In this document: positions 41,590-63,706 of the stretch, one piece after another
Numbering within the stretch: the stretch's first letter is position 1
How the letters are laid out: each line of letters begins with the position of its first letter
IMG/VR virus record: IMGVR_UViG_2740892427_000001
Source of the DNA: a virus
Taxonomy: Duplodnaviria > Heunggongvirae > Uroviricota > Caudoviricetes
DNA length: 64,000 bases
Reading direction: 5' to 3' (one strand)
Made by a program: the position numbers and the translations under genes
Notes under the pieces: model-generated
Databases searched by the model: none
What the model was told of the DNA's origin: nothing
Seen by the model: only the letters and a program-made list of their open reading frames with translations

Positions 41590-41918
41590 TGATGCCCGCC
41601 AATTGGCGGGCATCTGTTCTCTGTAAAGGTGTCTGGCATCGTCTGGTTCGTTAACGTTTACTAAACCAATGGTGACAAAAATTAGTTATCTTTGAAAAAT
41701 AAAGGTTGCATGAAAAGAAGGGGTATGCGTTAATAGCATCGTTGGTTTGCAAGACAGACCTTATGTAAGCAGTTTTAGTAAAGCAGTCTCAGTTCAGTGT
41801 TATCTTCTGATTTCCCTTCTTCGTGAGTCTCCTCCTTAAGTGCCTAAGTAAGTCCCAATCTATACAGATCAAATTCTCGCCGCACTATGTGGCTCACAAA
41901 ATTAAGAAGGTAATATCT

Positions 41919-42134
41919 ATGTCTAATAAAATGACTGGTTTAGTAAAATGGTTTAACTCTGATAAAGGCTTTGGCTTTATTTCTCCTGCTGATGGCAGTA
42001 AAGATGTTTTTGTACATTTTTCGGCAATTCAGAGTAATAATTTCCGCACTTTGGAAGAAGGCCAGCAGGTCGAATTCTCTATCGAGAATGGTGCTAAAGG
42101 CCCAGCAGCAGCAAATGTCGTTGCTCTAAGCTGA
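41919..42134 (+). CDS. cold-shock protein (CspA family)
   Basis: [38 protein letters not shown] is near-identical in pattern to E. coli CspA/CspE; long 5' UTR. Confidence 0.85.
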
Positions 42135-42412
42135 TTCAACGCTGATGATCCTCATTTCTACAATAACGAAGACGGTGTAAGCCTGAGTGGATAGATTTGT
42201 AGGATTGTACAAGTTGAATAAATTAGCATGGTAAGGCCATGCTAATTAAATCGACACAACGGCCAGTTTATTCCATAAAAGTGAATTGCCCATTGTGGCG
42301 AAATGCGGGGTTGCCGCATGAATAGTCAAAGGCAGAAGCTAACTGCCGGCATGGCAAAACAAAGTGCGTAAGAGGAGTGACTTCCTCAACAAGCGCCATA
42401 ATTCTTTATAAA

Positions 42413-42435
42413 CCCGCCAACAGGCGGGTTTTCTT
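42413..42435. terminator. bidirectional intrinsic terminator (cccgccaacaggcggg + T-run) between csp and dnaE
   Basis: 6-bp GC stem, T-run downstream, A-run upstream. Confidence 0.6.
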
Positions 42436-42437
42436 TA

Positions 42438-45400: not shown

Positions 45401-45944
45401 GCGGATAAACCACGCTATAGAAGTTGTCTTTCCCGCCCGCTGTAATCAGTGAGCTTATGATTTTTGCAAAATCGTTGCGTTGGAACACGCTACCGATGTC
45501 GGAAGTGAGCAGGATGATGTTGCCTTTGGCATATGTAGAAACCAACTGTTCGAGCGAGAGACGCGGTACAAAGTAGAACTGTTCTCGTGTGTTGGCCACC
45601 GTCATTAGTTCGCAGATGTCGCGATATCCTTTCTCATTTTTAATTAGAGCGGTAAACGAGTAGTTACGTCCTCGCTCCAATGATTCCATACATCCCTTAG
45701 ACTCTTTAGCAAGTTTAGCCCGGTGCTCGTATGTGGGATCATCAACGATGTTTAGTTTCACACCACAAATAACCGCCATGTCGTCACCAGCGGCACGTTG
45801 TAGTGGAATAACGCTCGCAATATTCATGCTATCTGCTGAAATTACAGCGGTGTAGCCAGCTTCTCTGGCAATCTTCACCGCGTTTTCTGCTTTTAGAGCC
45901 GACTCCCCAAGTGAGAAGTCAGTTCGAACCATCAGTGCTTTCAT
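42438..45944 (-). CDS. dnaE: DNA polymerase III alpha subunit-like replicative polymerase
   Basis: 1168 aa; N-terminal PHP-like domain; PDADLDF catalytic aspartate block parallels DnaE PDIDIDF. Confidence 0.8.
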   Translation of the reverse strand: MKALMVRTDFSLGESALKAENAVKIAREAGYTAVISADSMNIASVIPLQRAAGDDMAVICGVKLNIVDDPTYEHRAKLAKESKGCMESLERGRNYSFTALIKNEKGYRDICELMTVANTREQFYFVPRLSLEQLVSTYAKGNIILLTSDIGSVFQRNDFAKIISSLITAGGKDNFYSVVYPHPTPFYDQINVRAMKVASALKIEPVAFYPAYYESIDDADIKDIAHMVTNNIKIDQPHRLRIPHQRDNAINGRRHLLEALKAFSVRMDVPVTAAMASTTQDSIIDACTWRWHELPPALPKMADDEPATLMKLAVAGLRKRLTTKEFGYTPPASENRVYVERLKYEMDTLTRLGFCGYFLMVRDLMNHSRETGIPVGPGRGSSAGSLVAWCIGITNVDPIRHGLLFERFINPERLDLPDADLDFSQARRHEVIEYLNERYGEDYVAGIPNFTYLGAASALRDTARIYGVESADMAVSKELKNVEDDSLPLEELREQLASLDKYATKYPDAFNAACKLQSLMRGFGRHAAGMIVAGVPLTERTPVERRGDARCIAFDKRYCEAMGLIKLDVLGLATLDLLDSAKRYIKESTGEDINLDAIPLDDRKVLDGFAAGYTQGVFQLESGPMRKLLKDLGGGIEPMSFKTVVATTALFRPGPIQSGMLDDYVSVAKGFMAPHSIHPRLEEVTRETNGVLLYQEQIMQSSRVLAGFSMAEADALRSAIGKKNMDKMKAIGSDFVERAQAGWVTLSLKNGGTVEVHKHAKLDCSDGKRRSYSEAISDGIDYVEIVSEQEGLSKEKAQEIWDAFEKFGGYAFNKSHSVAYSLISYQSMWLKTHYPAEFFAAALTILGEDKHQGLVKDALTYGIRVLPPDVNVSSNRIEIRTLEDGSQALYAPFSAVKGCSENGCQAIMRAREKVGGKFESVAQFDEAVEKRACNSRVRESLHKVGAFASIEPGSLPATDPERLRDQAELMGNLIIDAVKASRPFEMNPKRSAEINVLMTRMAAEMGLGEELIRPTIGIKPKIMIILDNANGNDARTGYFMENGYDDFKAKLLTVGDLRMGDLYVTGVCKKVKDKEKDYTKDEIGQFTDFMREEINLVRPTYILTCGSRSTALFNNKSKPSDLIGRKEYFPELDATVFYGFNPNILYFRPEEGERLEAILADIAETINK

Positions 45945-46128
45945 GTGTTTTTACCTTTATGGTTTTTTTGATTTTGTCATTGGGGAAGCCTACGAACTTC
46001 CCATACATCGAAATCGCAACTTCTTTTGCTGATTGGTGACAATCGGTCTTGTCTGGACATACCAGACAAGCCTTACCAGTTTCAGAAGCAGCGATAAGAG
46101 AGCCGAAACATCCTTTACGCACGATCAA
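45919..46128 (-). CDS. small Cys-rich protein
   Basis: 69 aa, CLVCPDKTDCH. Confidence 0.35.
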   Translation of the reverse strand: MIVRKGCFGSLIAASETGKACLVCPDKTDCHQSAKEVAISMYGKFVGFPNDKIKKTIKVKTHESTDGSN

Positions 46129-47360
46129 CCAAATATTTTTTGAACAACTTCACGAGCCGCTTGTGCAGAAGCTGAAGGGAGTTTGTTAATGAAAGAACGC
46201 TCAATACCTGTCACAAAGTCGCCTCGCATCATTCCAATCTTGGCCGACAACAAAAGTTCACGAGGGCCAATTGGCTGACTGATAAGGTGTTCTTCGTATC
46301 CATCGCGAACGATACCGGCAAACTTAACCATCTTTTCTGCGTATTCATCCACGATACCGGCATTTATCAACATGTTGATCTCTGCCTCTTTGCTCATGTA
46401 TTTCACATTCGAAACGATGCCAAAACGCGAAAAGTTCGCGGCGTTCTGGATGTTTGTACCCTGGTACAAGCCGGTTTCATCACCAGATCCGTTCGTGTTG
46501 CCAGTGCCAATGAAAGCAAACCGTTCATGCGGAGTAATGCGACGCCATTCTGGAGTCGCCTCTTTGATGACCAACGCTTCACCTTCCAGCACTGGCTGAT
46601 ACACGCCAAGAATCTGTGGAAACGCAAAGTCGTATTCATCCGCGAGGTAAACCCAGCCATGCTTCATTGCGAGCGCAAGCAAGCCAGGCTCGAAATACGT
46701 AGAGCCATCACGCGCCAGAATTTGCCCCGTAACATGTGCCTCTTCCATTGATGCTGTATGTTGGGCACGGATCAACGGACGATTGAGCAAAGCACATAGT
46801 TGTGTAGGCAATGACGATTTGCCTGTTCCTGCATGACCCCACAAATAGCCAGGTATGCCAAGTTCAAGCATCATGAAAATGTCTTTGATCAGTTCGAAGT
46901 CGCCATATACGTAGCCCTTCTTCACTTCTGGAACGAACTCTGGAAACGGCGTATTGACGTTGACGCTAACCATGAGCGGCGTCCCACGTTTTGTTCCGAG
47001 TTCTTTCACCGTTACATTTAGCAGTTCGTGAGCTGCGACCAGATCTGTCTTGTACTCAACTGTGCCTGTGTAGCCTGGGCTACTGGTCACGCCAGATGAT
47101 TTGGCCATTTCGCTTTTTTGCTCGGCACGTTTAGCTTGAATTGCATCAAGTGCCTTTTTCGATAGCGTTGGCTCATCTGGAAACTGTGTTGTGTACATTT
47201 TCAGTACGGTGTCAGGATCGGCATCTTTTACTGACTCAGGAATGCCCTCGCAATTACCATTGGCTACATGGGACTTAAAATAGTGAAATGATTTTCCGCA
47301 CCACTTGCAAACAAGGTAATCAGAAGGATTTTTTTCATTTTGCAGTGCAGTAGTAGTCAT
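46125..47360 (-). CDS. CobS-like AAA+ (MoxR-family) ATPase
   Basis: Walker A GHAGTGKS; pairs with downstream vWA protein. Confidence 0.6.
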   Translation of the reverse strand: MTTTALQNEKNPSDYLVCKWCGKSFHYFKSHVANGNCEGIPESVKDADPDTVLKMYTTQFPDEPTLSKKALDAIQAKRAEQKSEMAKSSGVTSSPGYTGTVEYKTDLVAAHELLNVTVKELGTKRGTPLMVSVNVNTPFPEFVPEVKKGYVYGDFELIKDIFMMLELGIPGYLWGHAGTGKSSLPTQLCALLNRPLIRAQHTASMEEAHVTGQILARDGSTYFEPGLLALAMKHGWVYLADEYDFAFPQILGVYQPVLEGEALVIKEATPEWRRITPHERFAFIGTGNTNGSGDETGLYQGTNIQNAANFSRFGIVSNVKYMSKEAEINMLINAGIVDEYAEKMVKFAGIVRDGYEEHLISQPIGPRELLLSAKIGMMRGDFVTGIERSFINKLPSASAQAAREVVQKIFG

Positions 47361-47455
47361 GCGTTTTTCCTTTGTTTTCTAATGAGCGTTCAACTTCTTA
47401 TATAAATATATCATTATCTATCGTAAGTGGTTACTTATCGTTAAGGCTGTTTTGT

Positions 47456-49564
47456 TCACTTTAAAATGATACGAGATAGTTCAGTAACTACAGATGAACC
47501 AAGACTATCAACGCTCGTTACCAGGGCATGATTTGAGTAAAATCTCTCCGGTGCGTCAGTCATGATGCCAATTGCCATCAAATCAATGTCAGTCTGCGTT
47601 TCAATTTGCTTCGCAACCGAACGCAAATGAGCGTCAAAACCTCTCCCAACAGCCCACGGCTCGCCATCGCTCAGAACAAGCATGATCTTCCTGTCCTCCA
47701 TGCGACCGGAAAATAACGATGCAAGGCTGGCTATGCTTTCACCATCCACGTTATTAAGAAGTGGGAATGTGTAGCCTACGCACCCCATACGTGAGCGAAC
47801 TTCGCGAGAATTTACCTTTTCATTCCAATTTTTGATGATAGGTAGCATTAAAGATTCAAAGCGAGAGAACTCATACTTGACAGCCTTAAGTTCTCCTGCC
47901 GCCATATGACTACCAAATGTAGTGAAGCCGGTGATAATGTTGGGAACATTTATTCGATCAAGGGCATCGGCGATGGTATATGCACTTGCAAGAGCCAATT
48001 GTATCGTTATACCCCTCATTGAACCTGATAAATCAATCACTTGTTGAACACAGGCGTTAACGGCTTTAGATTCTTCTTTTTTACGAAACACGCGATCATC
48101 ATTCATTGCTAATCTGTAGATACTAGAACCATGAATGCGCCCCCGACGCTGGCCCGGTATAAACTGAACTCTGTTTCTGCTTGCTATTGCTCGCTCCAGG
48201 TCTTTTGCCAGCGTCGACGAAACACCTGACGAAAGATGCTTTTCAATATATTTGTCGAAGAGCTGGTTGCCTTCAGGAACGATGCGATAGCGGCTGATTG
48301 GACATCCTCCTAAATCAATATCGGAGAATGTTTTAATAAGCCGTTTGATATGGGCTTCTGCCTGATCAATCGAGCCGATGAAGTCGTATGAGCGATTGTA
48401 TGGCCTGTATTCGCTTTTCGAGCTTTCTGTTAACTCGCTTTTAATCGTTTCGGATAGAGCATCTTCTGTCATGCCTCCGACTTCATCTTCTATGCTATCC
48501 AGCTCCTCTAAAGCCTCTTCCAGACTCATTTTTGACGGAGTTGGGATATCTGAAGAGCCGTCTTCTGTCGTTTTTCTTTTTTCGTGGTCAGCGGTTAATG
48601 ATTCTGACGCCGCGTTATCAGAAGCATCAGAATCTGATACCTCTTTATCATTTTCTGTATCATCGAATATTGTTTCTGATGATTCAGAATTATCTGAATC
48701 ATCACTGTTGTTATTATCATGTTTGTGCTTACTATGTGATTCTGATTTGATAGATTTGTGATTATCTAACAATGAAGGTGTCTCATGATCTTCGTTGTCT
48801 TCATTGTTTTCTCCAGAGGCATCCGTCTGGTCAGCGTCAGAAGGATCGGAAGTTTTTCCCGGAGCTGACTCCTTACCTTTGCTTTCACTTTCAGTGTCTT
48901 TGAGGATCTTAGCTATGGTCGCAGCCACCTTTACACAATCCTCGGTGCAAGACATGTTACGCACGGCCACATCGATACCATGTTCTTTTAATAATGAAAT
49001 TGGTTTCTCAATGACAGGCCAGTATTCATCCATGAAATCTACGAACGGTGCTTGGCCATCCCAGGCTCTTACAACCGGACAGAGAAAGAAGTTTAGAAAA
49101 AGCGCGCGCTGATCTTTGCCACAATAAGCAATAGCCTCTGAAGCCTTTGGTTTAAAGACTTTTTCGATTATAAGGCGCTGAGTTGCCATCAGATTACGTC
49201 TTGTTCCGTTAAAGACCTGACCCATTTTTCGCTCGATGAACACGTCTTCTAAGGCATTCCATAGCGACCAGGAAGGAACGCGTCCTTTTTCTCTCATTTT
49301 GTTGGACACACGAATATCGGTAAACAAAATGTGAGCAACCTCATGATCGAGAAATCCGCGCACAGCATTCATCAATGCCGGTGTTGCGTTATCCGGGATT
49401 GATGGGATGTTTACGAGAATTGGCTCTCCATCATCGTTATAGCGTACATAAGCGTCGTCCCCTCGTTCTGCAACAGGGATGTTTTTACCTGAAAGGAGAG
49501 CGACTACTCGTTTTACACTGTCACGGAAGTCCTGAACCTCTTTGATGGAACGTTTTTTAGACAT
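47456..49564 (-). CDS. CobT-like protein with C-terminal von Willebrand A domain and long acidic low-complexity linker
   Basis: vWA-like blocks DLSGSM ... MLVLSDGEP; ~150-aa D/S/E/N-rich region. Confidence 0.55.
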   Translation of the reverse strand: MSKKRSIKEVQDFRDSVKRVVALLSGKNIPVAERGDDAYVRYNDDGEPILVNIPSIPDNATPALMNAVRGFLDHEVAHILFTDIRVSNKMREKGRVPSWSLWNALEDVFIERKMGQVFNGTRRNLMATQRLIIEKVFKPKASEAIAYCGKDQRALFLNFFLCPVVRAWDGQAPFVDFMDEYWPVIEKPISLLKEHGIDVAVRNMSCTEDCVKVAATIAKILKDTESESKGKESAPGKTSDPSDADQTDASGENNEDNEDHETPSLLDNHKSIKSESHSKHKHDNNNSDDSDNSESSETIFDDTENDKEVSDSDASDNAASESLTADHEKRKTTEDGSSDIPTPSKMSLEEALEELDSIEDEVGGMTEDALSETIKSELTESSKSEYRPYNRSYDFIGSIDQAEAHIKRLIKTFSDIDLGGCPISRYRIVPEGNQLFDKYIEKHLSSGVSSTLAKDLERAIASRNRVQFIPGQRRGRIHGSSIYRLAMNDDRVFRKKEESKAVNACVQQVIDLSGSMRGITIQLALASAYTIADALDRINVPNIITGFTTFGSHMAAGELKAVKYEFSRFESLMLPIIKNWNEKVNSREVRSRMGCVGYTFPLLNNVDGESIASLASLFSGRMEDRKIMLVLSDGEPWAVGRGFDAHLRSVAKQIETQTDIDLMAIGIMTDAPERFYSNHALVTSVDSLGSSVVTELSRIILK

Positions 49565-49662
49565 GGCTAATCCTTTGTTATGAAAACAAATTATTTACTA
49601 GTGTGTTTAATGTAGCACTGCGCGAACAGGGAACTAAGCCATTCGCGCAGGGAGAAGAGGGG

Positions 49663-49875
49663 TTAACAGATTCTGACGGCTAAAGACCCGGAGCCGGTAT
49701 TGAGAAGCGTGAAGCGTTTGTTGTTAAGTTCGAATATAAATCCAGTTGTGTCATTCACACCAACCTGAATCTGCTCATTCGGTAGATCGGTGAGGATGTC
49801 AGCTACACACTCATCAACTAATTTCTGTACGTGTCCGATCTCAAGAGCGATTAGGCTGGAAATAGTGGTGTTCAT
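49663..49875 (-). CDS. small hypothetical protein
   Basis: 70 aa ORF. Confidence 0.4.
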   Translation of the reverse strand: MNTTISSLIALEIGHVQKLVDECVADILTDLPNEQIQVGVNDTTGFIFELNNKRFTLLNTGSGSLAVRIC

Positions 49876-50053
49876 TCAATCAGTCCATTCTAACTTATAC
49901 TATGGTAAGGAATACTACTAAAATTTGTATCAATACTGAATACATTCATATCATATGCAAGTTGATTTTCTTACCTATTTTTGGCTAATTTTTCTCCGTG
50001 CAATGGCCTTTAACCGGTCTTTTAAGTGCCTATCGAAAAAAATGATAATAGCT

Positions 50054-50097
50054 TTACAACCCTAACCTTTGATGTAATATCGGTAAGCACTTACCAG
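50054..50097 (+). promoter_or_regulatory. promoter TTTACA-16-TAATAT with palindromic operator GGTAAGcaCTTACC just downstream of the -10
   Basis: Located 30-70 bp upstream of the HTH regulator ATG; the palindrome belongs to the dispersed motif family. Confidence 0.5.
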
Positions 50098-50126
50098 AGA
50101 GAATTGAACGCGCAAAGGTTGTAACC

Positions 50127-50513
50127 ATGTCTGATAACAAGATTGAATTTATAGAAAGTCGCTACGCTGCTTTTATCGCAGGGTTGATTGAATCCTCACC
50201 TATGAGCCAGGCCCAGATAGCCAAAACAATTGGGTATAAAAACGCCAACAACCTTTCTTTAATTAAAAGCGGCAAAATTCCTTTGCCTATCGATAAGGTT
50301 CGTCCGCTGGCGCTGGCACTGGGTATTGAGCCAAGTCGTCTTATGATGATGGTGCTGGAAGAACGCCAACCCGAACTCGCAGCATTTTTATACAAAGAAG
50401 GCACTGCTCCTCTTAACGAGGACGAAAAACAGGTTCTTGCTGCATATAACGAGCGATTCGGTAAAGAGAAAGGCGCATCACAAAAGGTTGTTGAGGCCAT
50501 AAAGTCTCTATGA
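50127..50513 (+). CDS. HTH (XRE/Cro-C1 type) transcriptional regulator
   Basis: 128 aa; HTH-like MSQAQIAKTIGYKNANNLSLIKSGK. Confidence 0.6.
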   Translation: MSDNKIEFIESRYAAFIAGLIESSPMSQAQIAKTIGYKNANNLSLIKSGKIPLPIDKVRPLALALGIEPSRLMMMVLEERQPELAAFLYKEGTAPLNEDEKQVLAAYNERFGKEKGASQKVVEAIKSL

Positions 50514-51611
50514 AAAATTTACACGAATAAGCTCTGTTGATAGACGATCTCCCTTAAATTTGTGGTCAATTTCGTCTAAATCCGGTTGCTCTACGATTGA
50601 TGCGATGTACGTCGAGAAACTTTCTAAGGCGTCTCGCATCTCGTCCATATAATCGTGCCGGTCGTAGACCCGATCTATCCCCTCAAGACTGTGGTTCATG
50701 ATTTTACGTGATACCTCCTGGCTTATGCCTAATGCTGGGAAGTAACTACGCGCAGTACGGCGCAAATCTCGGGGTGTAAATGGCTCAAGCTCCATCAGTT
50801 CTGGTCGTTCCAGAATACGACGTAATGCCTGGGCTATTGCCACTTTAGACATAGGAAGGTCTTTCCCGATTTTTTTATTCGAAGGCACGAGCCACTGGCT
50901 GTCTTTACCATATTCGAACAACTCTTCAATACAAGTGCGCATTAATGAGCTTAAAGGCAGAGAATGCTCACGGGCAGATTTGTTCCTCTTGCCTTGATTC
51001 CAAACCCCACGCTTAAGATTGAACTCACTTTTTTTAGCCCGCAGTACTTCGTCAGGTCGTCTTGCGGATACAAGACATAGCCTGGCCGCCCATTTTGTAC
51101 CAGCACACACATTGAAGTAGTCCCATATATTCCAGAACACCCATACCTCTGCGTCGGTCAGCTTCCGCTCGCGAGGTGTGGGCTTTGCGCCACCGGCAAC
51201 TTTGTTAAGTGACATATCGTTTAACGGTGACACGTCTATCATCCCCTGGAAGGCGCACCAGCTAAGGAACTGCTTCATCAGAGAGAAAACGCGGCGACCC
51301 ATAACAATTTTGCCATCCAGTATTAGTGGGTTGACCAGTTGGTTCACCATGAACCTATTAATGTCACTTACTTTTACATCGGCAATGTGCGGCAAAACAT
51401 GTATCAAAATACAATGAACAGCGATCTCTGGCCGACGTCTGGTTATCAGCAGAGATAAGCGAGTGAATAACATGAATGCGTCCGAGAATCTCATGTCATT
51501 GCTGACCTGGGAGATCGTAACGGCCTGCATTTGAGATGCTCTTTCGAGATACTCTATCGCCTCTTTTGAGGTGTTCTCCGCAGCGCGTGCTCTGTCAAAG
51601 CTATTTTTCAT
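50508..51611 (-). CDS. tyrosine recombinase / integrase family protein
   Basis: C-terminal region DLRRTARSY ... HSLEG ... VYDRHDY matches the catalytic R..H..R..Y pattern. Confidence 0.6.
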   Translation of the reverse strand: MKNSFDRARAAENTSKEAIEYLERASQMQAVTISQVSNDMRFSDAFMLFTRLSLLITRRRPEIAVHCILIHVLPHIADVKVSDINRFMVNQLVNPLILDGKIVMGRRVFSLMKQFLSWCAFQGMIDVSPLNDMSLNKVAGGAKPTPRERKLTDAEVWVFWNIWDYFNVCAGTKWAARLCLVSARRPDEVLRAKKSEFNLKRGVWNQGKRNKSAREHSLPLSSLMRTCIEELFEYGKDSQWLVPSNKKIGKDLPMSKVAIAQALRRILERPELMELEPFTPRDLRRTARSYFPALGISQEVSRKIMNHSLEGIDRVYDRHDYMDEMRDALESFSTYIASIVEQPDLDEIDHKFKGDRLSTELIRVNFS

Positions 51612-51637
51612 ATGACAATCACCGAGTTACGCCGATG

Positions 51638-51657
51638 TACTGTATAAGTAAACAGTA
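51638..51657. promoter_or_regulatory. LexA (SOS) box TACTGTataagtaaACAGTA upstream of the recombinase gene
   Basis: CTGT-N8-ACAG with flanking TA, 27 bp upstream of the recombinase ATG (51611). Confidence 0.6.
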
Positions 51658-51709
51658 TATTAGGCATAGATTCTTATAGGATCAAGAGTAAAAGTAACTC
51701 ATTTTTACT

Positions 51710-51742
51710 AATGATTCCATACATAGTAGGTATGGAATCATT
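51710..51742. repeat. perfect inverted repeat AATGATTCCATAC-N7-GTATGGAATCATT
   Basis: 13-bp arms; same ATGTATGGAATCAT core recurs at ~53479 and ~54506. Confidence 0.5.
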
Positions 51743-51798
51743 TTGACGTTGTTTTTTGAATTTTAAGGGAAACGGGAGTGAGTTTGGTGGGAATAAAA

Positions 51799-51816
51799 AC
51801 GGCTCCTGTGAGCCGT
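51799..51816 (-). terminator. intrinsic terminator after glutaredoxin gene
   Basis: acggctcctgtgagccgt stem followed on minus strand by TTTTTA. Confidence 0.5.
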
Positions 51817-51821
51817 TAAAA

Positions 51822-52067
51822 TCAGAGGGTGCTGACGTATGCAGCCAGTTCTGTGTATCCGCCAATCGGTTGGCCATCGATCAGCACTTGGGGGATAGTC
51901 TCTACCGGTTTACCAACAATTTCACTTAGTTTTTCCTTGTCGATACCGGCAGTGGTGATGTCGATGTACTCATAATCACCGTAGCCATGTCCCTTTAGTT
52001 GCTTCGCCAGCTCGACCGCACGTTTGCAGTATGAGCAGTTATCTCGTCCGTAGATAGTGATCGTCAT
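51822..52067 (-). CDS. glutaredoxin-like protein (RNR reductant)
   Basis: 81 aa; CSYC active site near N-terminus. Confidence 0.7.
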   Translation of the reverse strand: MTITIYGRDNCSYCKRAVELAKQLKGHGYGDYEYIDITTAGIDKEKLSEIVGKPVETIPQVLIDGQPIGGYTELAAYVSTL

Positions 52068-52414
52068 TGCTTTGCCTCATGCCACTTTTGCTTCAGGAGA
52101 TAGCCTTCCAGGGGCCAGATTTGATCGATAGCATCTTTTCGAGCGTACTCGCGACCAACATCAAAGTTGAAGATTTCTGGTCTTACGCACGCAGATTTTC
52201 CCGTTACGGTATATCCATTTTTGAGAACCATAACGCAGAACGTTAAGAGTTTTAACGACTCATGACCTTTGTCGATATCTGTTTTTGAATTGTAAACAGA
52301 GATGAAGTTATCCCCGTGGCTGGCATCATATGCAGTGAAATAATGTTCACTTTGAATGAGTTGTTCAATGTGTTCAGGGGTGACTTTTAGTGGTGTGTTA
52401 TCTTTGCTGGTCAT
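52064..52414 (-). CDS. hypothetical protein
   Basis: 116 aa ORF overlapping glutaredoxin start. Confidence 0.45.
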   Translation of the reverse strand: MTSKDNTPLKVTPEHIEQLIQSEHYFTAYDASHGDNFISVYNSKTDIDKGHESLKLLTFCVMVLKNGYTVTGKSACVRPEIFNFDVGREYARKDAIDQIWPLEGYLLKQKWHEAKQ

Positions 52415-52555
52415 TATTTCTTCCTACAAAGTTCGTAGACTTGACTCTTTCAGTTGCAAAAAAGGGGCCGAAGCCCCTTTGAATTTTGCGCTGAAAAAAA
52501 GTGTTGCTAGGATGTTAGCAAGCTATGGTTAAGAACGTCTGCCGTAATTGTCTAT

Positions 52556-52633
52556 CACAGCGTTGAGCGGTCTGGTTTATGTTAGCGGAGTCTTAATCTG
52601 GGTGATTAAAAGGCCAAACCGCTCAACGCTGTG
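52556..52633 (-). repeat. hairpin-bounded module H1 (15-bp perfect terminal inverted repeat CACAGCGTTGAGCGG), abuts tRNA-Ser
   Basis: 78 nt; one of four related modules in the tRNA region. Confidence 0.45.
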
Positions 52634-52635
52634 TT

Positions 52636-52722
52636 TGGCGGAGAGTAATGGAATCGAACCATCATCGCTTGCGCAATGGGACGGTTTTCAAGACCGCTTG
52701 AGCACCATGCTCCCTACTCTCC
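52636..52722 (-). tRNA. tRNA-Ser (anticodon TGA), long variable arm
   Basis: Cloverleaf folded by hand: acceptor GGAGAGT/ACTCTCC, anticodon loop CTTGAAA, T-loop GGTTCGATTCC, 87 nt. Confidence 0.7.
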
Positions 52723-52822
52723 AGCTATTGTGATGGTCGGTGCTGAACTCCGACACAGGGTTGTAGCAAGCCCCGCAAAGCGCGCACTACTGTAGTTGCG
52801 GCACATCAGCCTGTGCATTCAT

Positions 52823-52901
52823 CACAACGGTAAGATCACTACCTTTCGACCAGTCATTGTGCACATGAACGACGATTAACCGTAATGATCTTATCGTTGT
52901 G
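52823..52901 (-). repeat. hairpin-bounded module H2 (terminal inverted repeat CACAACGGTAAGATCA)
   Basis: 79 nt, 16-bp stems with one G-U position. Confidence 0.4.
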
Positions 52902-52952
52902 TTGTGAAGCCAGATGCTTATCTTCTGGTTGCTTCAAAGAGCTGCACTTCCT

Positions 52953-53041
52953 CACAACGGTAAGAGCACTGGTCTGACTCTATCGATTTACGGGCTTGTG
53001 GGTCAGTATCGCCGATTCGCCCAATGCTCTTACCTGTTGTG
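52953..53041 (-). repeat. hairpin-bounded module H3 (terminal inverted repeat CACAACGGTAAGAGCA), abuts tRNA-Thr
   Basis: 89 nt, 16-bp stems with one bulge. Confidence 0.4.
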
Positions 53042-53042
53042 T

Positions 53043-53118
53043 TGGTGCCGGTTAACGGGATCGAACCGCTGACATCCTGCTTACAAGGCAGACGCTCTAC
53101 CAACTGAGCTAAACCGGC
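53043..53118 (-). tRNA. tRNA-Thr (anticodon TGT)
   Basis: Acceptor GCCGGTT/AACCGGC, anticodon loop CTTGTAA, T-loop GGTTCGATCC, 76 nt. Confidence 0.8.
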
Positions 53119-53122
53119 AATT

Positions 53123-53209
53123 TGGTGGGGAGTGATGGAGTCGAACCACCCGAGTCGCAATGACAGTAGATTTACAGTCTACCCCGCTGCCCCTACGGAC
53201 TAACTCCCC
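53123..53209 (-). tRNA. tRNA-Tyr (anticodon GTA), long variable arm
   Basis: Acceptor GGGGAGT/ACTCCCC, anticodon loop CTGTAAA, T-loop GGTTCGACTCC, 87 nt. Confidence 0.75.
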
Positions 53210-53214
53210 TAAAT

Positions 53215-53289
53215 TGGCGATGGTGGGTGGATTCGAACCACCGACCAGTTGGTTAACAGCCAACTGCTCTACCGCTGAGCTACACCATC
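53215..53289 (-). tRNA. tRNA-Asn (anticodon GTT)
   Basis: Acceptor GATGGTG/CACCATC, anticodon loop CTGTTAA, T-loop GGTTCGAATCC, 75 nt. Confidence 0.8.
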
Positions 53290-53555
53290 AATTCAGCACT
53301 GCCAGTATTTATTACTCAACAGTGCCAATCGCGACGGTTTAGTTTCTGCCAGGAAACGCACCGCTACTTGCACTTTTCGTTAGTGCCAGACGCTTTCGAC
53401 TTCGCTCAATAGTAGAAGGCAAAATCTTTAAGTAGATGATGTTTCTGAGGACAGCACCTACTTTGTAATTTATACAATGTGATGTATGGAATCATTTGTT
53501 GTGAAAACAGGCACCAATGGCAACAGTGGTTAAACCTACACAACAATCCTGTCTT

Positions 53556-53677
53556 CACAACGTTGAGGCCACTACTCCGATTGAATGTTTGCCCAACATG
53601 TTACATATCAACGCTCGCCGGTATCTCTGTGAATAGAACCTTAGAATTGATAAAAATGTAATGGCCTCAACGTTGTG
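53556..53677 (-). repeat. hairpin-bounded module H4 (16-bp perfect terminal inverted repeat CACAACGTTGAGGCCA)
   Basis: 122 nt; upstream of the tRNA cluster. Confidence 0.4.
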
Positions 53678-54081
53678 TGCTGGCTAACCATACCAGCCGG
53701 GCTACGTCGCCGCTTTTTAACCCAGTATAAACGACATAATTGAACAAAATGACGTAACAGGATGGGCGGTCAGTGGCTAAGAATCCGGGAGTCATATGGA
53801 GTTGAAAATATACCAACCGCCCATTCTGTTACTTCATCGGATAGGGCATAGTGGTTTGGCTGTCTATGCCCTATCCTGCGTTCTGCAATCACACTCGCTC
53901 AGTGTGTCCCATTTCGGTAACGAGGCTGGAAACTGACCTCGCTGGTGTTTGGCTTATTAGGCTACTGCCAGATAGACTTCTTCGTTTGCACTTGTATTTA
54001 AGTTCAAACAGTCGCGTCTCAACGAAAACAAAGTCATCTTATACATAAAAGATAAGTAAGTAAATACTTATCATGATGTTT

Positions 54082-54372
54082 CTATTCGGTTGTGACTTTT
54101 TTGATCAAGGCCACTCTACGACTAGGTGTTCTTGTGATGGTGGCAGTGAATCGTTTCGCCTGGATAGTAATGGTTTCGTTCTCCTTAAGTTGCCCGTAGC
54201 GAGTTTCCACCAGGGTGCCAAGACGCCACAGACCATCATCGATACGTTTATGACTAGCAAATTTAATCAGCAACAGTTTTACGACTAACTGACCTACGTA
54301 AAAGGCGAATGCGACTCCGGTCGCTAAGAAATAGGTGGCCAACCACCATTCCCAAGAAGTTAAATTGCTCAT
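54082..54372 (-). CDS. membrane protein
   Basis: 96 aa; N-terminal TM segment WEWWLATYFLATGVAFAFYVGQLVV. Confidence 0.45.
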   Translation of the reverse strand: MSNLTSWEWWLATYFLATGVAFAFYVGQLVVKLLLIKFASHKRIDDGLWRLGTLVETRYGQLKENETITIQAKRFTATITRTPSRRVALIKKVTTE

Positions 54373-54521
54373 TTTTTCACCTTTGTTTCATGAACTACCC
54401 GATACACACGCTTTCCGATGCACAGTGTTTTGGTTTTAAGTTCCTGCTTAATTAAATCACGACAGATGCCGAAGCCGATAAGGAAGCCACCCATAAAAGC
54501 TAATGAGATGTATGGAATCAT
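54369..54521 (-). CDS. small membrane peptide (50 aa)
   Basis: MIPYISLAFMGGFLIGFGICRDL...; stop overlaps next start (ATGA); start lies in the ATGATTCCATAC motif. Confidence 0.3.
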   Translation of the reverse strand: MIPYISLAFMGGFLIGFGICRDLIKQELKTKTLCIGKRVYRVVHETKVKK

Positions 54522-54733
54522 TTTAACACTCCTGATTCTACTAATTGCTGTAGCAATACTTTCCCTTTATCAGTTAACTGGTAGTTGGCCGAACACCACG
54601 TTTCAGAAACGTTTGCAACCAACCCTAAACGCTCTAACTTAGCTCGCGTTTTAGGCTTCCAGTACTCAGGGAACTCCGGCCACTTACTGATTTCATGAAG
54701 CGTTTCCTTCTCCCGTTTACTTAATACGATCAT
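54518..54733 (-). CDS. small hypothetical protein
   Basis: 71 aa ORF. Confidence 0.4.
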   Translation of the reverse strand: MIVLSKREKETLHEISKWPEFPEYWKPKTRAKLERLGLVANVSETWCSANYQLTDKGKVLLQQLVESGVLK

Positions 54734-54896
54734 CCTTAATCTCCTTCAGGGTGTTGGTTATTTCTACAATGCGATAAATACGACCGCGTCTTTCTATAAC
54801 ACCGCTTTTAATGTAGTCATTGATGCAACTGGACATCACCACAATACCTATGAAAAAACCAACTGCTAAAAATGCAATCATCCAGCCGAGCATCAT
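54717..54896 (-). CDS. small membrane peptide (59 aa)
   Basis: MMLGWMIAFLAVGFFIGIVVM...; starts right after ligase stop. Confidence 0.3.
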   Translation of the reverse strand: MMLGWMIAFLAVGFFIGIVVMSSCINDYIKSGVIERRGRIYRIVEITNTLKEIKDDRIK

Positions 54897-56215
54897 TCTT
54901 TATCTCCGATTCGATCTTCTGTATCGCGTAAGCAACGCGGCCATTTCAGTCGGGGGTGGCGTAAGCTGCCATCCGGTGTTTTCTCGTGACAATGAACCTC
55001 AACAATACGACCACGGTACTTCTCTTTGTTGTTCCAGATCTCGTCCAGATATTTATGCTTAATACCGCTCGCACGAACGATGACGCCGTTTTCAAGACGA
55101 ATAACAATTTTTCCAAGCGTGTTGGCAAAACCAGAGTCCGGATCGCCCGGCTCAAAATCGATAATTTCACCATCTTCTGAATCTTCGTCTTTTAACTTCC
55201 ACCAGCTGCGGGTACGTTTAAACTCGTAAACAGAGTTCGGATCTTTGCCCATCTCCCCTTCTTCGTTATCGTCCAGGCGTTTCATGAAGCGTTCGATGAA
55301 GTCTTCGTGGCTATGGATGATATAGAACGGATGTAGGTGAATGTCTTGCGCGTAGTCTTCACTGCGATCGTTTTTGAACAACGCCACGAGAATAGCCAGG
55401 CGCTCTTTCAGCTTCATACCTGTCTTTGCATACTCTTTGGATTTAGCCTGTGCCCGCCATTCCGGTAGGAAAAAGTCGAAAACATGATAAATAGCGCCAA
55501 TTGCCTGCACGTTCTTTTTGCGCAATGCAGATACGGACTGGTTAAATGAACCGGCTGTTCCTTCACCATCGAAGAAGATGTGTTTGTGGCCTGAAAGTTT
55601 GCCTAATTCGAGCATTGCTGGCTTTAGGTGATCGAGAGACGTGATTGGATTACCAGTACGAGAAAGGAAGTTAACCTCTTCCTCGTCAACAATAACCTCG
55701 CAAATTACTCGCAAACCATCGAGCTTAAGACTGCCAATCATCGGCCATTTTGCTTTAGGATTTGGCTTGAAGGGGTATTTGTCGCCTTTTTCTTTATACG
55801 GTGACGCCAGCTGCACCTCGAATTTCGGAATGGGATTTTCAAAAACCTTGTTGCATAGGCTAATCCCAACACCTGCTTTCGGGTCTTTTAAGAGGAAACG
55901 ACGGAACACGTCCTGCCCATCGGCGCACATTGACGCCACGATAGACTCAACAGCTGCTATTGCTGCGTTCCCCGTCAGCTCGCGAGAGGCCAGCTTATTC
56001 AGTACATCAATGGCTTTTTCGTCACTTGGGACGGACTCACTAAGCGGCTCTGCCACTTTGTATTTCTTTACCCCAAAACGGATGAAAGGGTTGAGCATCA
56101 ATGAAACCATGCTTTGTTCAAAGTCATCCATGTTGGCCAATGCCTCTTTTTTTGCATTGGTTCCCATAGCTTTCATTTCGTCCAGCTTATGCTTAAGTGC
56201 GATCAACTTTTTCAT
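54893..56215 (-). CDS. ATP-dependent DNA ligase
   Basis: Adenylation motif I KLDGLR; 440 aa. Confidence 0.7.
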   Translation of the reverse strand: MKKLIALKHKLDEMKAMGTNAKKEALANMDDFEQSMVSLMLNPFIRFGVKKYKVAEPLSESVPSDEKAIDVLNKLASRELTGNAAIAAVESIVASMCADGQDVFRRFLLKDPKAGVGISLCNKVFENPIPKFEVQLASPYKEKGDKYPFKPNPKAKWPMIGSLKLDGLRVICEVIVDEEEVNFLSRTGNPITSLDHLKPAMLELGKLSGHKHIFFDGEGTAGSFNQSVSALRKKNVQAIGAIYHVFDFFLPEWRAQAKSKEYAKTGMKLKERLAILVALFKNDRSEDYAQDIHLHPFYIIHSHEDFIERFMKRLDDNEEGEMGKDPNSVYEFKRTRSWWKLKDEDSEDGEIIDFEPGDPDSGFANTLGKIVIRLENGVIVRASGIKHKYLDEIWNNKEKYRGRIVEVHCHEKTPDGSLRHPRLKWPRCLRDTEDRIGDKE

Positions 56216-56694
56216 TGTTGTTTTGCCTCCATATGTTGATCGATTTGCTCATGTGTTTCTTTTGTTGTTTCTTCAAGCAACGCCGCATACACGTCAGTGA
56301 TCGCTGTTTGTGATGTGGCGCTCTTCTTAACCATGCTATTAATCGTTACACTGTCACGTTTTCGTTTTATAGTTCTGGCTTGTTTATTCCGTTCTTCAAC
56401 CTCCTTAATGAGTGCGGTCATATCTTCGAAATACAGAGATTCTCCTTTACGAATCTCTTCAACCATCATTTTTAACGCCTTGCATTTGCCTGCTTTGATA
56501 GCGGTTGCGCACGACTGGAATGAAGTTCGAGGAAGACGGTTTTCTTTGAAGGCAAGAATGGTGTGCTGGCAAACGGAGTAGCTGCAATATGCCGACTCAC
56601 CGTTTATCTTTACTTCCTCACAACGAAGTGAATAACCATTATTTCCTGAAATAGAGGGGATTTTTGACAAATCAGCTTTCACAACCACCGCCAC
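56212..56694 (-). CDS. Cys-rich hypothetical protein
   Basis: 160 aa ORF, stop overlaps ligase start. Confidence 0.45.
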   Translation of the reverse strand: MAVVVKADLSKIPSISGNNGYSLRCEEVKINGESAYCSYSVCQHTILAFKENRLPRTSFQSCATAIKAGKCKALKMMVEEIRKGESLYFEDMTALIKEVEERNKQARTIKRKRDSVTINSMVKKSATSQTAITDVYAALLEETTKETHEQIDQHMEAKQQ

Positions 56695-56749
56695 AAATAA
56701 TCTTGTACTTACCTATCATTCTTTGCGTAAAAAACGACACACTGAGAGA

Positions 56750-57532
56750 TTACCAACTTCCCCAGCTAATCATCTTGCGCTGATTGCTTTCTAAGCGATA
56801 GGGGGCAAGAAGCTCTGTGACATGATTGGTGGCGTATGATTTAGCCTCTTGCTCTATCATCGGTAATTCGTTAGCAATCCTGACCACCTTCCCAGCAAAT
56901 TCCGCCATTACGCCATCACATGCCTTCCCAGCATCAATAACGATATGCACCAGATCCAACTGGCTTTTGCACATGTCCCAAAGAGTCGAATATTCGCTCT
57001 CCCTGATTACATTTACGGCATCATTAGCCCCTTTATTAAGCAAGACTTCCAACAGGTTTGTCGGGGTAACGAAATCGGCTTTAAGTGACAATGTTCTCTC
57101 ACCTTTTATCGACCGTAAGTACTCTTCGTAGTTTTGCTTGTCTTCCAGCAAAACTAAGCTATGCATAGTTAGAAGTGATTCCTGAATAGCCTCTTCAATA
57201 ATACTGTCGTTTGGCGCACAAAAAACGGTATTTGTGTAGATCACTTTGCCATCCATCCATGCCCCAACCTGCACTTTAAGACTGATCGGGTTTTCTTTGC
57301 TAATAAAAACAACTAATGCAGAACGCCGTGCACAAGAAGGTTCACCCCATACGTGTAACTTAACCTTCAGATAAGGTAGCCCCGGTAGCGGGATCTCGAC
57401 CAAACGAGTGGCGATATGATCCATTGCTGTTTTTACGGCTTTTTCAATGATGTCTAGCCGATTGCTCTCGCTGATTTCTAAACCAGTTTTATCAATGATG
57501 TCGCAGGCTAATTTCTGAATTTCGTCTTTCAT
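56750..57532 (-). CDS. hypothetical protein
   Basis: 260 aa ORF. Confidence 0.5.
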   Translation of the reverse strand: MKDEIQKLACDIIDKTGLEISESNRLDIIEKAVKTAMDHIATRLVEIPLPGLPYLKVKLHVWGEPSCARRSALVVFISKENPISLKVQVGAWMDGKVIYTNTVFCAPNDSIIEEAIQESLLTMHSLVLLEDKQNYEEYLRSIKGERTLSLKADFVTPTNLLEVLLNKGANDAVNVIRESEYSTLWDMCKSQLDLVHIVIDAGKACDGVMAEFAGKVVRIANELPMIEQEAKSYATNHVTELLAPYRLESNQRKMISWGSW

Positions 57533-57607
57533 ACAAACTCCTAGCTAACAGATGAAAGTATTCTTACAGAAAGATAAGTAATCATCTACTTATTTTATCG
57601 GCACTTG

Positions 57608-58789: not shown

Positions 58790-58870
58790 GTGTTTTTCTT
58801 TTGTGGTTTGGCAAAAGAAAAGTTGTTTCACCAATGAATCAAGCGTGGAGGTGTTCTCCACGCTTATTTT

Positions 58871-60211: not shown

Positions 60212-60254
60212 GTGCTTTCCTTTGTTTTTTAAACAAATTGTTTTCTAGTATTAG

Positions 60255-61004: not shown

Positions 61005-61111
61005 CTGGTAGGTAGTTACTTACTTATCACAATGAGCGGATGATAGCGACTGGTGGCAGTTTTTGGAAGTGGAAACGGAAGGGAATGTATCTGGGAAGTC
61101 AGCAGAGAAAA

Positions 61112-62045: not shown

Positions 62046-62083
62046 ACTGCTTTAAAATATAGGCGCCATCTGGCGCCTTATTC

Positions 62084-63699: not shown

Positions 63700-63706
63700 T
63701 TTACTC

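Follow-up and report, generated by a model that had tools for sequence, protein, structure and literature searches.

In the window analysed here (the whole stretch of DNA, 64 kb), a tyrosine recombinase gene was found whose predicted promoter is overlapped by a conserved LexA operator and which lies beside a candidate recombination site. We consider this locus to be probably, though far from certainly, a Cre/lox-like multimer-resolution module that is under SOS control and serves a phage-plasmid, not chromosomal integration. The locus comprises the following features.

50508..51611, minus strand: tyrosine recombinase ('integrase') gene (int), 367 aa, without an arm-binding domain (Pfam PF00589, PHROG_1)
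51619..51623, minus strand: Shine-Dalgarno sequence GGTGA, 7 nt before the ATG
51638..51657, unstranded: LexA operator (SOS box) TACTGTATAAGTAAACAGTA, CTGT-N8-ACAG with an A/T-rich spacer
51657..51662, minus strand: predicted -10 hexamer TAATAT of P_int, from sequence and alignment
51680..51685, minus strand: predicted -35 hexamer TTGATC, containing GATC, 17 nt from the -10
51710..51742, unstranded: candidate core site AATGATTCCATAC-ATAGTAG-GTATGGAATCATT, a perfect 13-7-13 inverted repeat
51798..51817, minus strand: terminator-like hairpin with a T-run after the glutaredoxin gene, which would insulate P_int from upstream transcription

The window is part of a circular phage-plasmid of ~110 kb from the SSU5/pHCM2/pSLy3 supergroup, to which Escherichia phage Cyrano (pLF82) stands close. 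The first 25 kb of the window, apbC included, map onto plasmids of 106-121 kb at 98-99% coverage, and the apbC and metG copies of the window are plasmid-borne. Both window ends mapped to plasmids and no chromosome junction is present in the window; the earlier note had placed the gene far from such a junction, which does not exist here, as the window is plasmid throughout. The recombinase gene is carried by 252 of 5,426 complete E. coli genomes, in which all 255 copies of the gene and its upstream region are located on plasmids and none on a chromosome. SSU5-type phage-plasmids have been stated to be exclusively extrachromosomal (PMC9600943). An Rfam search returned tRNAs only, and the tRNAs adjoining the recombinase gene are phage-plasmid genes and not an attB.

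The LexA operator is laid out as TA-CTGT-ATAAGTAA-ACAG-TA, i.e. a palindromic core with flanking TA, and departs from the ideal palindrome TACTGTATATATATACAGTA at three positions, all inside the central A/T-rich spacer. The 20-mer is unique in the window (0 expected, 100 shuffles), and only two sites in the 64 kb come within three mismatches of the ideal palindrome, where none is expected. Scored with an approximate LexA PSSM of ~25 E. coli operators, the box reaches 23.8 bits, about as high as recN and higher than recA and sulA with the same matrix; the top score in the window shuffled 30 times was 17.7 bits. The whole ~113-kb plasmid holds only two strong LexA sites, the other of which precedes a HumD-family (UmuD'-like) gene. 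The humD gene of P1 is LexA-regulated, and the second site serves as an informal positive control only. The near-consensus LexA box that had been noted before the integrase gene is thereby confirmed, except that its gap to the ATG (51611) is 26 nt (51612..51637) and not 27. From its sequence, LexA is expected to bind at 51638..51657. No published account of LexA control of this recombinase was found in the literature searched, outside which lie most subscription journals, and a prior description is possible.

The predicted -10 and the LexA box share one base, the final one of the hexamer, and the box covers the expected +1 of P_int. With 8 of 12 consensus positions matched, the predicted promoter (TTGATC-17-TAATAT) stayed below the threshold of 9 of our consensus scan, which therefore did not flag it; the prediction is based instead on conservation. 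Across 11 aligned lineages the architecture of promoter and box is conserved while neighbouring bases diverge, with CCTAATAT nearly invariant and the TTGA of the -35 kept in 10 of the 11. A service of the box to a plus-strand gene was also considered and rejected: none is encoded there in the window, and the plus-strand moron of Cyrano, CYRAN_43, is expressed constitutively at a very high level, which is not SOS-like.

The SOS box recurs, in 12 or more sequence variants, in relatives from Escherichia, Salmonella, Klebsiella, Yersinia (pMT1), Kluyvera and Serratia, positioned between -34 and -49 relative to the ATG and scoring 19-27.6 bits, while its flanks diverge. All IMG/VR loci with at least 74% protein identity carry it (19-27.6 bits, -44 to -49) bar two, namely a Buttiauxella-type locus and one whose upstream region has been replaced, and it is also found in a clade at 59% identity and in a Serratia element. 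The Nissabacter-type, Chimaeribacter, Xenorhabdus, Pantoea and Rahnella members of the family are without a box, indicating that SOS control is a lineage-specific addition and not intrinsic to the module. The box at P_int is the only strong LexA box common to the complete E. coli-type and Klebsiella pJN2-26 genomes; no homologue of pJN226_0031, the second Klebsiella gene with a LexA box, was found in the window. As the box is genuine, overlaps the promoter and is phylogenetically conserved, DNA-damage-inducible expression of the recombinase, proposed in the earlier note, is very likely, and published expression data agree with it.

The integrase-family assignment of the gene proved real, with a PF00589 match (E=3e-10) of 40.6 bits against a cut-off of 27.1 bits. 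A PDB sequence search with the recombinase gave no match, and a Foldseek search with its AlphaFold2 model (pLDDT 83) matched lambda Int (1z1b, E=1.4e-7), Tn1549 Int, Xer, IntI (2a3v, a lower-ranked match) and Cre and, weakly, MrpR and YopR (8a0a, 8bj6). In an alignment of 19 sequences, comprising 16 family members and three P4-type outgroups, all sequences share R185, K211, R284 and Y316, and 17 have H307. In the catalytic HxxR motif, the 16 family members have Arg (R281) in place of the first His, the outgroups having HDLRRT, and recombinase activity is for this reason not guaranteed. Outside the family, P4-type integrases come nearest in sequence, at 27-34% identity across the core-binding and catalytic domains. 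The arm-binding domain PF13356 (DUF4102), present in the P4-type outgroups P0114-P0120, is absent from the recombinase, which scores 33.9 bits with the P4-type model PRK09692 against a cut-off of 434 bits.

A search for a cognate att or dif-like site, suggested in the earlier note, yielded a candidate that this note had missed, the 33-bp inverted repeat at 51710..51742, which starts 52 bp beyond the LexA box, upstream of the recombinase gene. A 13-7-13 repeat stands upstream of the recombinase gene in 138 of 143 family loci. Across the family the arms are of only two main types, which change symmetrically, and the spacers are of 25 different kinds; the 7-bp spacer is asymmetric, and it varies and flips even among close relatives. 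The outer edge of the repeat is precisely where homology between related plasmids ends. The full site is present in a single copy in the ~113 kb, where neither a second full site nor arm motifs bounding the variable cargo were found. The geometry, 13-bp inverted arms around an asymmetric 7-bp spacer, is that of lox and FRT sites. Judging from these patterns, the repeat is most probably the substrate of the recombinase.

Other functions of the repeat were considered. As a terminator on the int strand it was rejected, since its hairpin (-16.2 kcal/mol) has no U-run after it, and as the glutaredoxin terminator likewise, a separate one being present at 51817..51798; it might conceivably act as a terminator on the opposite strand, or have such a role in Klebsiella, whose palindrome is longer and has T8 at its flank. 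An operator of the neighbouring HTH protein was rejected as well: the repeat accompanies int in megaplasmid loci without the HTH gene (Pantoea, Rahnella, Hafnia, Erwinia), and the promoter region of the repressor has other palindromes and no arm motif.

In addition to the full site, three isolated half sites were found.

45679..45691, plus strand: half site AATGATTCCATAC(AT), within the dnaE gene (+253 relative to its start codon), oriented toward the full site
53484..53496, minus strand: half site ~195 bp before the tRNA cluster on its upstream side, oriented toward the full site
54510..54522, minus strand: half site that overlaps a 50-aa ORF at its start codon, oriented toward the full site

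The position and orientation of all three are conserved in elements of E. coli, Klebsiella, Salmonella, Serratia and the Nissabacter type, and the synonymous positions of the dnaE half site are frozen across five lineages. In clade-B phage-plasmids, which keep int and the full site, no half sites were found within +/-10 kb. A simple resolution system does not account for the three conserved half sites.

We infer the following working of the module, in which catalysis at the 33-bp site and the biological role are read from sequence. The recombinase gene would form its own transcription unit with a sigma-70 promoter whose -10 the LexA operator overlaps by 1 nt. In the undamaged cell, a LexA dimer on 51638..51657 would occlude the -10 and +1 and keep expression low; upon DNA damage, RecA-stimulated cleavage of LexA would derepress the gene. 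The product, a 'simple' recombinase without an arm-binding domain, would then act at the 33-bp site 52 bp further upstream, its job being presumably the resolution of plasmid multimers and possibly also the circularisation or exchange of genomes. SOS would in this way raise resolution capacity when RecA-driven recombination yields more dimers. The earlier note had coupled the recombinase to integration, excision or dimer resolution; the plasmid location of all 255 E. coli copies speaks against the first two, and dimer resolution survives.

Published transcriptomes and the genes on the far side of int bear on this scheme.

50127..50513, plus strand: HTH gene, 128 aa, convergent to int, whose 3' end it overlaps by 6 bp
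49663..49875, minus strand: 70-aa ORF (PHROG 2627; CYRAN_46 in Cyrano), the first gene beyond the HTH gene on the int strand

The HTH protein consists of an HTH domain only, without an S24 peptidase (autocleavage) domain. Its counterpart in Cyrano, CYRAN_45, is annotated as 'putative repressor', the repressor role being annotation only, and the convergent synteny of int and the HTH gene is kept in the phage-plasmid members. In RNA-seq of strain LF82 in macrophages at 6 h, the int orthologue CYRAN_44 rises from 6.07 to 10.30 log2, i.e. by +4.2 or ~19-fold (PMC9928086, S1/S4), which supports induction of the recombinase in an SOS-inducing environment. In the same data dinI rises by +4.4, umuD by +4.8 and sulA by +2.6 log2, the glutaredoxin gene upstream of int is unchanged, CYRAN_46 goes up together with int (by +4.7 log2), and more reads fall on CYRAN_45 as well, possibly from either strand (PMC9928086). 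The int gene ranks about 8th of 123 Cyrano genes by induction in macrophages, and Cyrano genes without a box are induced as much or more. The macrophage condition combines several stresses and the data are from wild-type lexA alone; the rise of int parallels that of dinI, umuD and sulA. No Cyrano virions are made in macrophages, where dnaE, helicase and primase are not induced; with int ~19-fold up, derepression of P_int is thus not sufficient for virions. Published work also describes a 39-fold induction of Cyrano by ciprofloxacin and the inducibility of SSU5-like elements by mitomycin C.

The same observations could be read differently. It is conceivable, though rather unlikely, that P_int is the SOS sensor for lytic induction, with recombinase output secondary or additional: the transcript would run through int, antisense through the convergent repressor gene and on into the early operon (the 70-aa ORF, CobT/CobS-like genes and dnaE), thereby lowering repressor expression and bypassing control at the repressor's own promoter. 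Induction by ciprofloxacin and mitomycin C, a putative repressor that could not be autocleaved through an S24 domain, the sharing of this one strong box by the E. coli-type and Klebsiella pJN2-26 genomes and the expression of CYRAN_46 and CYRAN_45 all speak for it, as does the 6-bp overlap of int and the HTH gene, which leaves no room for a terminator between them. However, int rises in macrophages without virions and with dnaE, helicase and primase flat, the box is missing from phage-plasmids that share the convergent arrangement, a weak terminator-like hairpin (50287..50271) lies within the antisense path through the HTH gene, and the repressor is one by annotation only. We hold it unlikely, too, that P_int is the long-sought DNA-damage input of SSU5/pHCM2/pMT1-type phage-plasmids and couples genome resolution to the lysis-lysogeny decision, which would combine an antisense transcript through the repressor gene with a recombinase-fold protein that binds the polar half sites and the lox-like site.

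Quite improbable in our view is a protein that has the recombinase fold and acts mainly as a DNA-binding regulator, comparable to SPbeta MrpR and YopR, with the repeat and half sites as its operators and SOS as a modulator. The three isolated, perfect half sites, one of them frozen in dnaE codons, the His-to-Arg replacement and the Foldseek matches to MrpR and YopR, though weak, would suit such a protein, and in relatives without a box, the right arm of the repeat overlaps with the promoter, a layout of autoregulation. Yet the other catalytic residues are invariant or, for H307, nearly so; invariant arms, a free asymmetric 7-bp spacer and homology breaks at the edge are the signature of a crossover site; and clade-B phage-plasmids do without the half sites. 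The earlier note's SOS-induced phage integrase working at a chromosomal att site has the public label 'site-specific integrase' and the relatedness to P4-type integrases in its favour, but is essentially refuted by the absence of chromosomal copies among the 255 in E. coli, the all-plasmid window, the missing PF13356, the low PRK09692 score and the extrachromosomal life of these elements; a spacer that varies and flips among close relatives is moreover incompatible with a match to a conserved attB. That the palindrome resembles a LexA site by chance or has no function is barely credible: the bare CTGT-N8-ACAG motif is indeed not significant by count (3 in the window against 0.9 expected), as 8 of 100 shuffles reach 3, but the full 20-mer scores far above the shuffles, occupies a fixed place on the -10, retains the consensus in its variants from six genera and goes with expression that parallels canonical SOS genes.

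SSU5-supergroup phage-plasmids are common in clinical Enterobacteriaceae, include the pHCM2-like replicons of S. Typhi and the pMT1-like ones of Y. pestis, can carry resistance genes and are induced by quinolones and mitomycin C. In the literature searched, most subscription journals being outside it, no description was found of how they sense DNA damage or of the role of their conserved 'integrase'. The locus offers a defined LexA operator on this universally conserved gene, and the 33-bp candidate site could furnish a new recombination tool that is lox-like and orthogonal. Should the recombinase become more abundant under SOS, recombination at this site, which marks a hotspot of cargo exchange, would be promoted by antibiotic stress as well.

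Among known systems, the promoters of integron integrases (intI1 and V. cholerae intIA) are said to be LexA-repressed, in work attributed to Guerin et al. (2009). The likeness extends to a LexA box over the promoter of a tyrosine recombinase, a gene beside the primary recombination site and variable cargo that starts on the far side of the site. The recombinase described here, however, is closest to P4-type integrases in sequence and to lambda Int in fold, and appears not to be an IntI protein, an assignment drawn from the P4-type relatedness. Integrons have attI/attC in place of a simple 13-7-13 palindrome, and neither a second full site nor a cassette array was seen bounding the cargo in the ~113 kb. 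P4-type integrases (IntS, CP4-57; NCBIfam PRK09692), the nearest sequence relatives, have an N-terminal PF13356 arm-binding domain and integrate into the chromosome, typically at tRNA genes; the recombinase here does neither.

Coliphage 186 tum is a LexA-controlled induction module. The N15 antirepressor and GIL01 are cited as further such modules in PMC11652158. In all three, as here, a host LexA box in a prophage ties SOS to the behaviour of the element, but LexA controls an antirepressor or lytic promoter there and a recombinase gene convergent to a putative repressor here. FtsK (dinH) with XerCD-dif is a precedent for the up-regulation of dimer-resolution capacity by SOS. It is chromosomal, employs two recombinases and is activated by a translocase, unlike the plasmid system here, and to our knowledge the XerCD recombinase genes themselves are not LexA-regulated.

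P1 Cre/loxP resembles the module in a phage-plasmid-borne recombinase without an arm-binding domain and in one site per genome, located near the gene and built from inverted arms of 13 bp around an asymmetric spacer. It differs in a spacer of 8 bp instead of 7 bp, and the system here has, besides, three conserved half sites at other places in the genome; the similarity to Cre is at fold level only (Foldseek E ~2e-3), and we know of no LexA control of Cre. The cre promoter is Dam-sensitive, of which the GATC in the -35 of P_int is reminiscent, and the expected role of the two systems is alike, namely multimer resolution or cyclisation.

A predicted operator for LexA, as the earlier note had proposed, lies upstream of the gene encoding a 367-aa tyrosine recombinase (Int; minus strand, 50508..51611), and 26 nt, rather than the 27 bp given there, separate it from the ATG (51611). 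The boxes considered here and the second gene preceded by one are:

51638..51657, LexA box TACTGTATAAGTAAACAGTA, single occurrence in the window
1938..1957, second strong LexA box TGCTGTATATGCATACAGTA, 23.9 bits, 16 nt upstream of the HumD-family gene
1532..1921, minus strand, HumD-family gene, 129 aa (UmuD'-like, already "processed"; NCBIfam equivalog, 219.8 bits)

Scored with an approximate position matrix of about 25 E. coli operators, the int box reached 23.8 bits, a score similar to that of recN and higher than those of recA and sulA on the same matrix; 30 shuffles of the window gave at most 17.7 bits. The bare motif CTGT-N8-ACAG is not rare in the window (3 found, 0.9 expected), but only two sites in the 64 kb have three or fewer mismatches to the ideal LexA palindrome, against none in 100 shuffles. 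Since P1 humD is LexA-regulated, the HumD-family gene can be used as an informal positive control for the scoring. Each of the two complete genomes scanned contains only two strong boxes, of which the int box is the sole one in common. The other strong box of Klebsiella phage pJN2-26 (TACTGTTTAAATGTACAGTA, 23730..23749, 23.1 bits) sits 15 nt (23750..23764) before pJN226_0031, whose 87-aa product has no homologue in the window and could be an SOS-induced effector or antirepressor.

Read along the minus strand, the region between the glutaredoxin gene and int is organized as follows:

51822, minus strand, stop codon of the glutaredoxin gene
51817..51798, minus strand, terminator-like hairpin and T-run
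51742..51710, perfect 13-7-13 inverted repeat between the hairpin and the -35 (plus strand, 51710..51742: AATGATTCCATAC-ATAGTAG-GTATGGAATCATT), sole full copy in about 113 kb
51685..51680, minus strand, TTGATC, predicted -35 of the int promoter (P_int)
51662..51657, minus strand, TAATAT, predicted -10 of P_int
51657..51638, LexA box, between the -10 and GGTGA
51623..51619, minus strand, GGTGA, followed by the ATG

This order of stop codon, hairpin, promoter, box and ATG indicates that the recombinase gene is its own transcription unit. Spaced by 17 nt, the two P_int hexamers match 8 of the 12 consensus positions, and a consensus promoter scan did not flag them; we call P_int a promoter because it is conserved. 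Read from the sequence, the box extends over the end of the predicted -10 and the presumed start site, the classical geometry of repression. Within the -35 (51680..51685) there is also a Dam site (GATC), which 8 of 11 aligned lineages share; it recalls the Dam-sensitive promoter of P1 cre.

Conservation of the box was followed across 143 loci gathered from reference genomes, assemblies and IMG/VR. Among IMG/VR loci with at least 74% protein identity, all but two have a box, scoring 19.1-27.6 bits and placed at -44 to -49 relative to the ATG; in one exception the upstream region has been replaced, and the other, of Buttiauxella type, reaches 11.4 bits. The box is also found in Yersinia pestis (a pMT1-like contig), Kluyvera, Salmonella, Klebsiella phage pJN2-26, a Serratia element (60% identity) and another clade at 59% identity. 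At least 12 distinct box sequences occur (for example TACTGGTTACTTATACAGGT, TACTGTACAAACATACAGTT and TACTGTTTATATATACAGTA); in the upstream alignment, divergence affects the 8-bp spacer and the leader, but the -10, the TTGA of the -35 and both half-sites (ACTGT/ACAGT) are retained. No box was found in relatives at 56-61% identity (Nissabacter-type, Chimaeribacter), nor in any at 45-50% (Pantoea, Rahnella, Erwinia, Xenorhabdus and others). In the box-less Nissabacter-type and Chimaeribacter loci (L009, L010, L088), the repeat lies 43-45 nt from the ATG and the -35 of a TGGAAT-17-TATGCT promoter falls inside its right arm, an overlap that suggests autoregulation by the recombinase. The predicted SOS control is thus specific to some lineages, added to an older module that looks autoregulated.

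Published expression data were consistent with this control. Misson et al. 2023 (PMC9928086) re-analysed LF82 RNA-seq, in which CYRAN_44 of Escherichia phage Cyrano (pLF82) is the Int orthologue.

Expression in LF82 (mean log2 fpkm; PMC9928086)
CYRAN_44 (Int): LB 5.63; medium 1 h 7.94, 6 h 6.07; macrophage 1 h 8.89, 6 h 10.30
dinI: LB 7.3; medium 1 h 7.5, 6 h 5.8; macrophage 1 h 9.1, 6 h 10.2
umuD: LB 5.4; medium 1 h 4.8, 6 h 4.1; macrophage 1 h 8.2, 6 h 8.9

From medium to macrophage at 6 h, CYRAN_44 rose by 4.2 log2 units; in the same data sulA rose by 2.6 and HumD-like CYRAN_98, the orthologue of the 1532..1921 gene, by 3.1. Expression of the glutaredoxin gene upstream of Cyrano int hardly changed (5.5 to 5.7); that of CYRAN_43, the adjacent moron, was constitutive and very high. 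Int ranked about 8th of 123 Cyrano genes by rise, and toxin-antitoxin and some structural genes rose equally. The expression of int agrees with LexA control but is no proof of it.

The element itself belongs to the SSU5/pHCM2/pSLy3 supergroup of phage-plasmids (PMC9928086, PMC11652158). Between 49.5 and 53.5 kb it shares 97.9% identity with Cyrano, and 156 PLSDB plasmid records cover at least 80% of this region, the best matches listed being 101-126 kb. The earlier note had placed a chromosome junction in the window; none is present, as apbC and metG are plasmid-borne and the first 25 kb, chromosome-like apbC copy included, has 98-99% coverage on 106-121-kb plasmids. Both genes lie inside plasmid pNT1F31-113kb and have Cyrano counterparts (CYRAN_99 and CYRAN_100); the metG 5' end and apbC/mrp (394..1494), in window 1..1494, imitate a junction. 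Positions 1..1922 and 41500..61167 are collinear with pNT1F31-113kb, while 1923..5830 and 61168..64000, which that plasmid lacks at the equivalent positions, are further variable regions. The four tRNAs near int (52636..53289; Ser-UGA, Thr-UGU, Tyr-GUA, Asn-GUU) are genes of the element; the Thr/Asn part is 85-92% identical to the tRNA region of P1, P7 and D6-type phage-plasmids, suggesting exchange between otherwise unrelated groups.

Int matches Pfam Phage_integrase above cut-off and PHROG_1 (integrase). Its AlphaFold2 model (mean pLDDT 83) has as top fold matches DNA-bound lambda Int, Tn1549 Int, XerA/XerH, IntI and Cre; among further matches are MrpR and YopR, SPbeta repressors that resemble recombinases, so Int could conceivably have a regulatory role on the side. 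R185, K211, R284 and Y316 do not vary, H307 is present in 17 of 19 aligned sequences, and Arg replaces the first His of HxxR in the aligned members of the family. The closest sequence relatives beyond the family are P4-type integrases (27-34% identity), which, unlike this family, carry the PF13356 arm-binding domain; the P4-type NCBIfam model gave 33.9 bits against a cut-off of 434.

The candidate for the cognate site, whose search the earlier note had advised, is the 33-bp repeat. Of 143 loci, 138 carry an equivalent repeat, its spacer also 7 bp long, at a distance of 70-190 bp upstream of the gene. The 52 distinct sites have essentially two inner-arm sequences, TGATTCCATAC and TGACTCCAGAC, always changed symmetrically in both arms, and 25 different A/T-rich spacers. 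Invariant arms with a free spacer are expected where a site need only recombine with its own copy, as in multimer resolution; an attP, which has to match a chromosomal attB, would not be expected to show this pattern. In 5,426 complete E. coli genomes, the gene and its upstream region occur in 252, with 255 of 255 copies on plasmids, and these phage-plasmid types are described as exclusively extrachromosomal (Pfeifer et al. 2022, PMC9600943). We therefore rejected chromosomal integration, and the coupling to integration or excision once suggested finds no support.

Spacers occur in both orientations relative to the gene, five pairs being seen both ways. They are inverted even between near-identical elements, namely the window and PhiR41_1 (ATAGTAG at 51723..51729 versus CTACTAT at L004 6220..6226) and L157 and L159 (TCTATAG versus CTATAGA). 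Ordinary site-specific recombination leaves spacer orientation unchanged relative to the flank, so these flips imply template switching at the palindrome or an unusual reaction.

The repeat was also considered as the operator of the HTH protein, a putative repressor encoded convergently to int (50127..50513, plus strand). This was rejected: repeat and int co-occur without the HTH gene on Pantoea, Rahnella, Hafnia and Erwinia loci, and the HTH promoter region has no arm motif, indicating that the repeat belongs to the recombinase. That region (50018..50098) has a promoter, TTTACA-16-TAATAT (50053..50080), flanked by an imperfect inverted repeat and then by a perfect palindrome of its own, GGTAAGCACTTACC (50082..50095), at which the putative repressor may act.

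Homology between related plasmids ends repeatedly at the outer edge of the repeat (Cyrano, PhiR41_1, Klebsiella elements), including in about one in four of the E. coli plasmids sampled. The adjoining interval up to the glutaredoxin gene (51743..51821; equivalents in L002, L003, L004, L085 and L086) is a cargo hotspot, empty in the window. It holds CYRAN_43 in Cyrano (184 aa, expressed 723-fold above background), a gadW-like regulator and a large gene in PhiR41_1, and other unknown genes in Klebsiella and Salmonella. In Pantoea/Erwinia loci (L012, L014, L016, L018, L038), a Fur-box-like ATGATAATGATAACAATTATCATT is conserved about 100-250 nt upstream of the repeat and presumably belongs to a neighbouring iron-regulated gene.

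Isolated perfect half sites, all pointing toward the full site, were also found:

45679..45691, plus strand, AATGATTCCATACAT, inside dnaE
53484..53496, minus strand, AATGATTCCATACAT
54510..54522, minus strand, AATGATTCCATACAT

Their position and orientation are kept in five diverged lineages (E. coli, Klebsiella, Salmonella, Serratia and Nissabacter-type elements); they are absent from Xenorhabdus and Providencia relatives. The dnaE half site lies at +253 in 5 of 5 lineages with identical codons (GGA TGT ATG GAA TCA) amid varying synonymous positions nearby, which shows constraint at the DNA level. The half sites suggest that the protein, or another factor, may also bind elsewhere as a monomer.

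We propose that LexA represses P_int, that DNA damage would derepress it and that Int would then act at the 33-bp site. The most economical role for Int would be multimer resolution at times of increased RecA-dependent recombination, the plasmid being low-copy (5.5 copies per cell for Cyrano; PMC9928086). If the parallel with Cre/lox holds, the site may also serve cyclisation or exchange between plasmids. Alternatively, SOS-driven read-through and antisense transcription from P_int could itself trigger induction of the phage-plasmid. In favour of this, int converges on the putative repressor gene with a 6-bp overlap, and CYRAN_46, the next same-strand gene, is co-induced (+4.7 log2). The putative repressor is an HTH domain only, without an autocleavage domain, and the int box is the one shared by both scanned genomes; yet ciprofloxacin induces Cyrano 39-fold (PMC9928086), and mitomycin C induces SSU5-like elements (PMC9600943). 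However, in macrophages int is strongly up, yet no virions appear and replication genes are uninduced, and the same gene arrangement exists in phage-plasmids without the box. We consider this trigger improbable and favour multimer resolution.

The recombinase and site family pervades SSU5-supergroup phage-plasmids and enterobacterial megaplasmids. A literature search that covered few subscription journals found no description of this family, nor of a LexA-controlled recombinase combined with a lox-type phage-plasmid module. Each half of the combination has a known parallel: integron integrases are tyrosine recombinases under LexA control, as is proposed for int, and P1 carries a lox-type module on a phage-plasmid, which the recombinase and repeat described here resemble.
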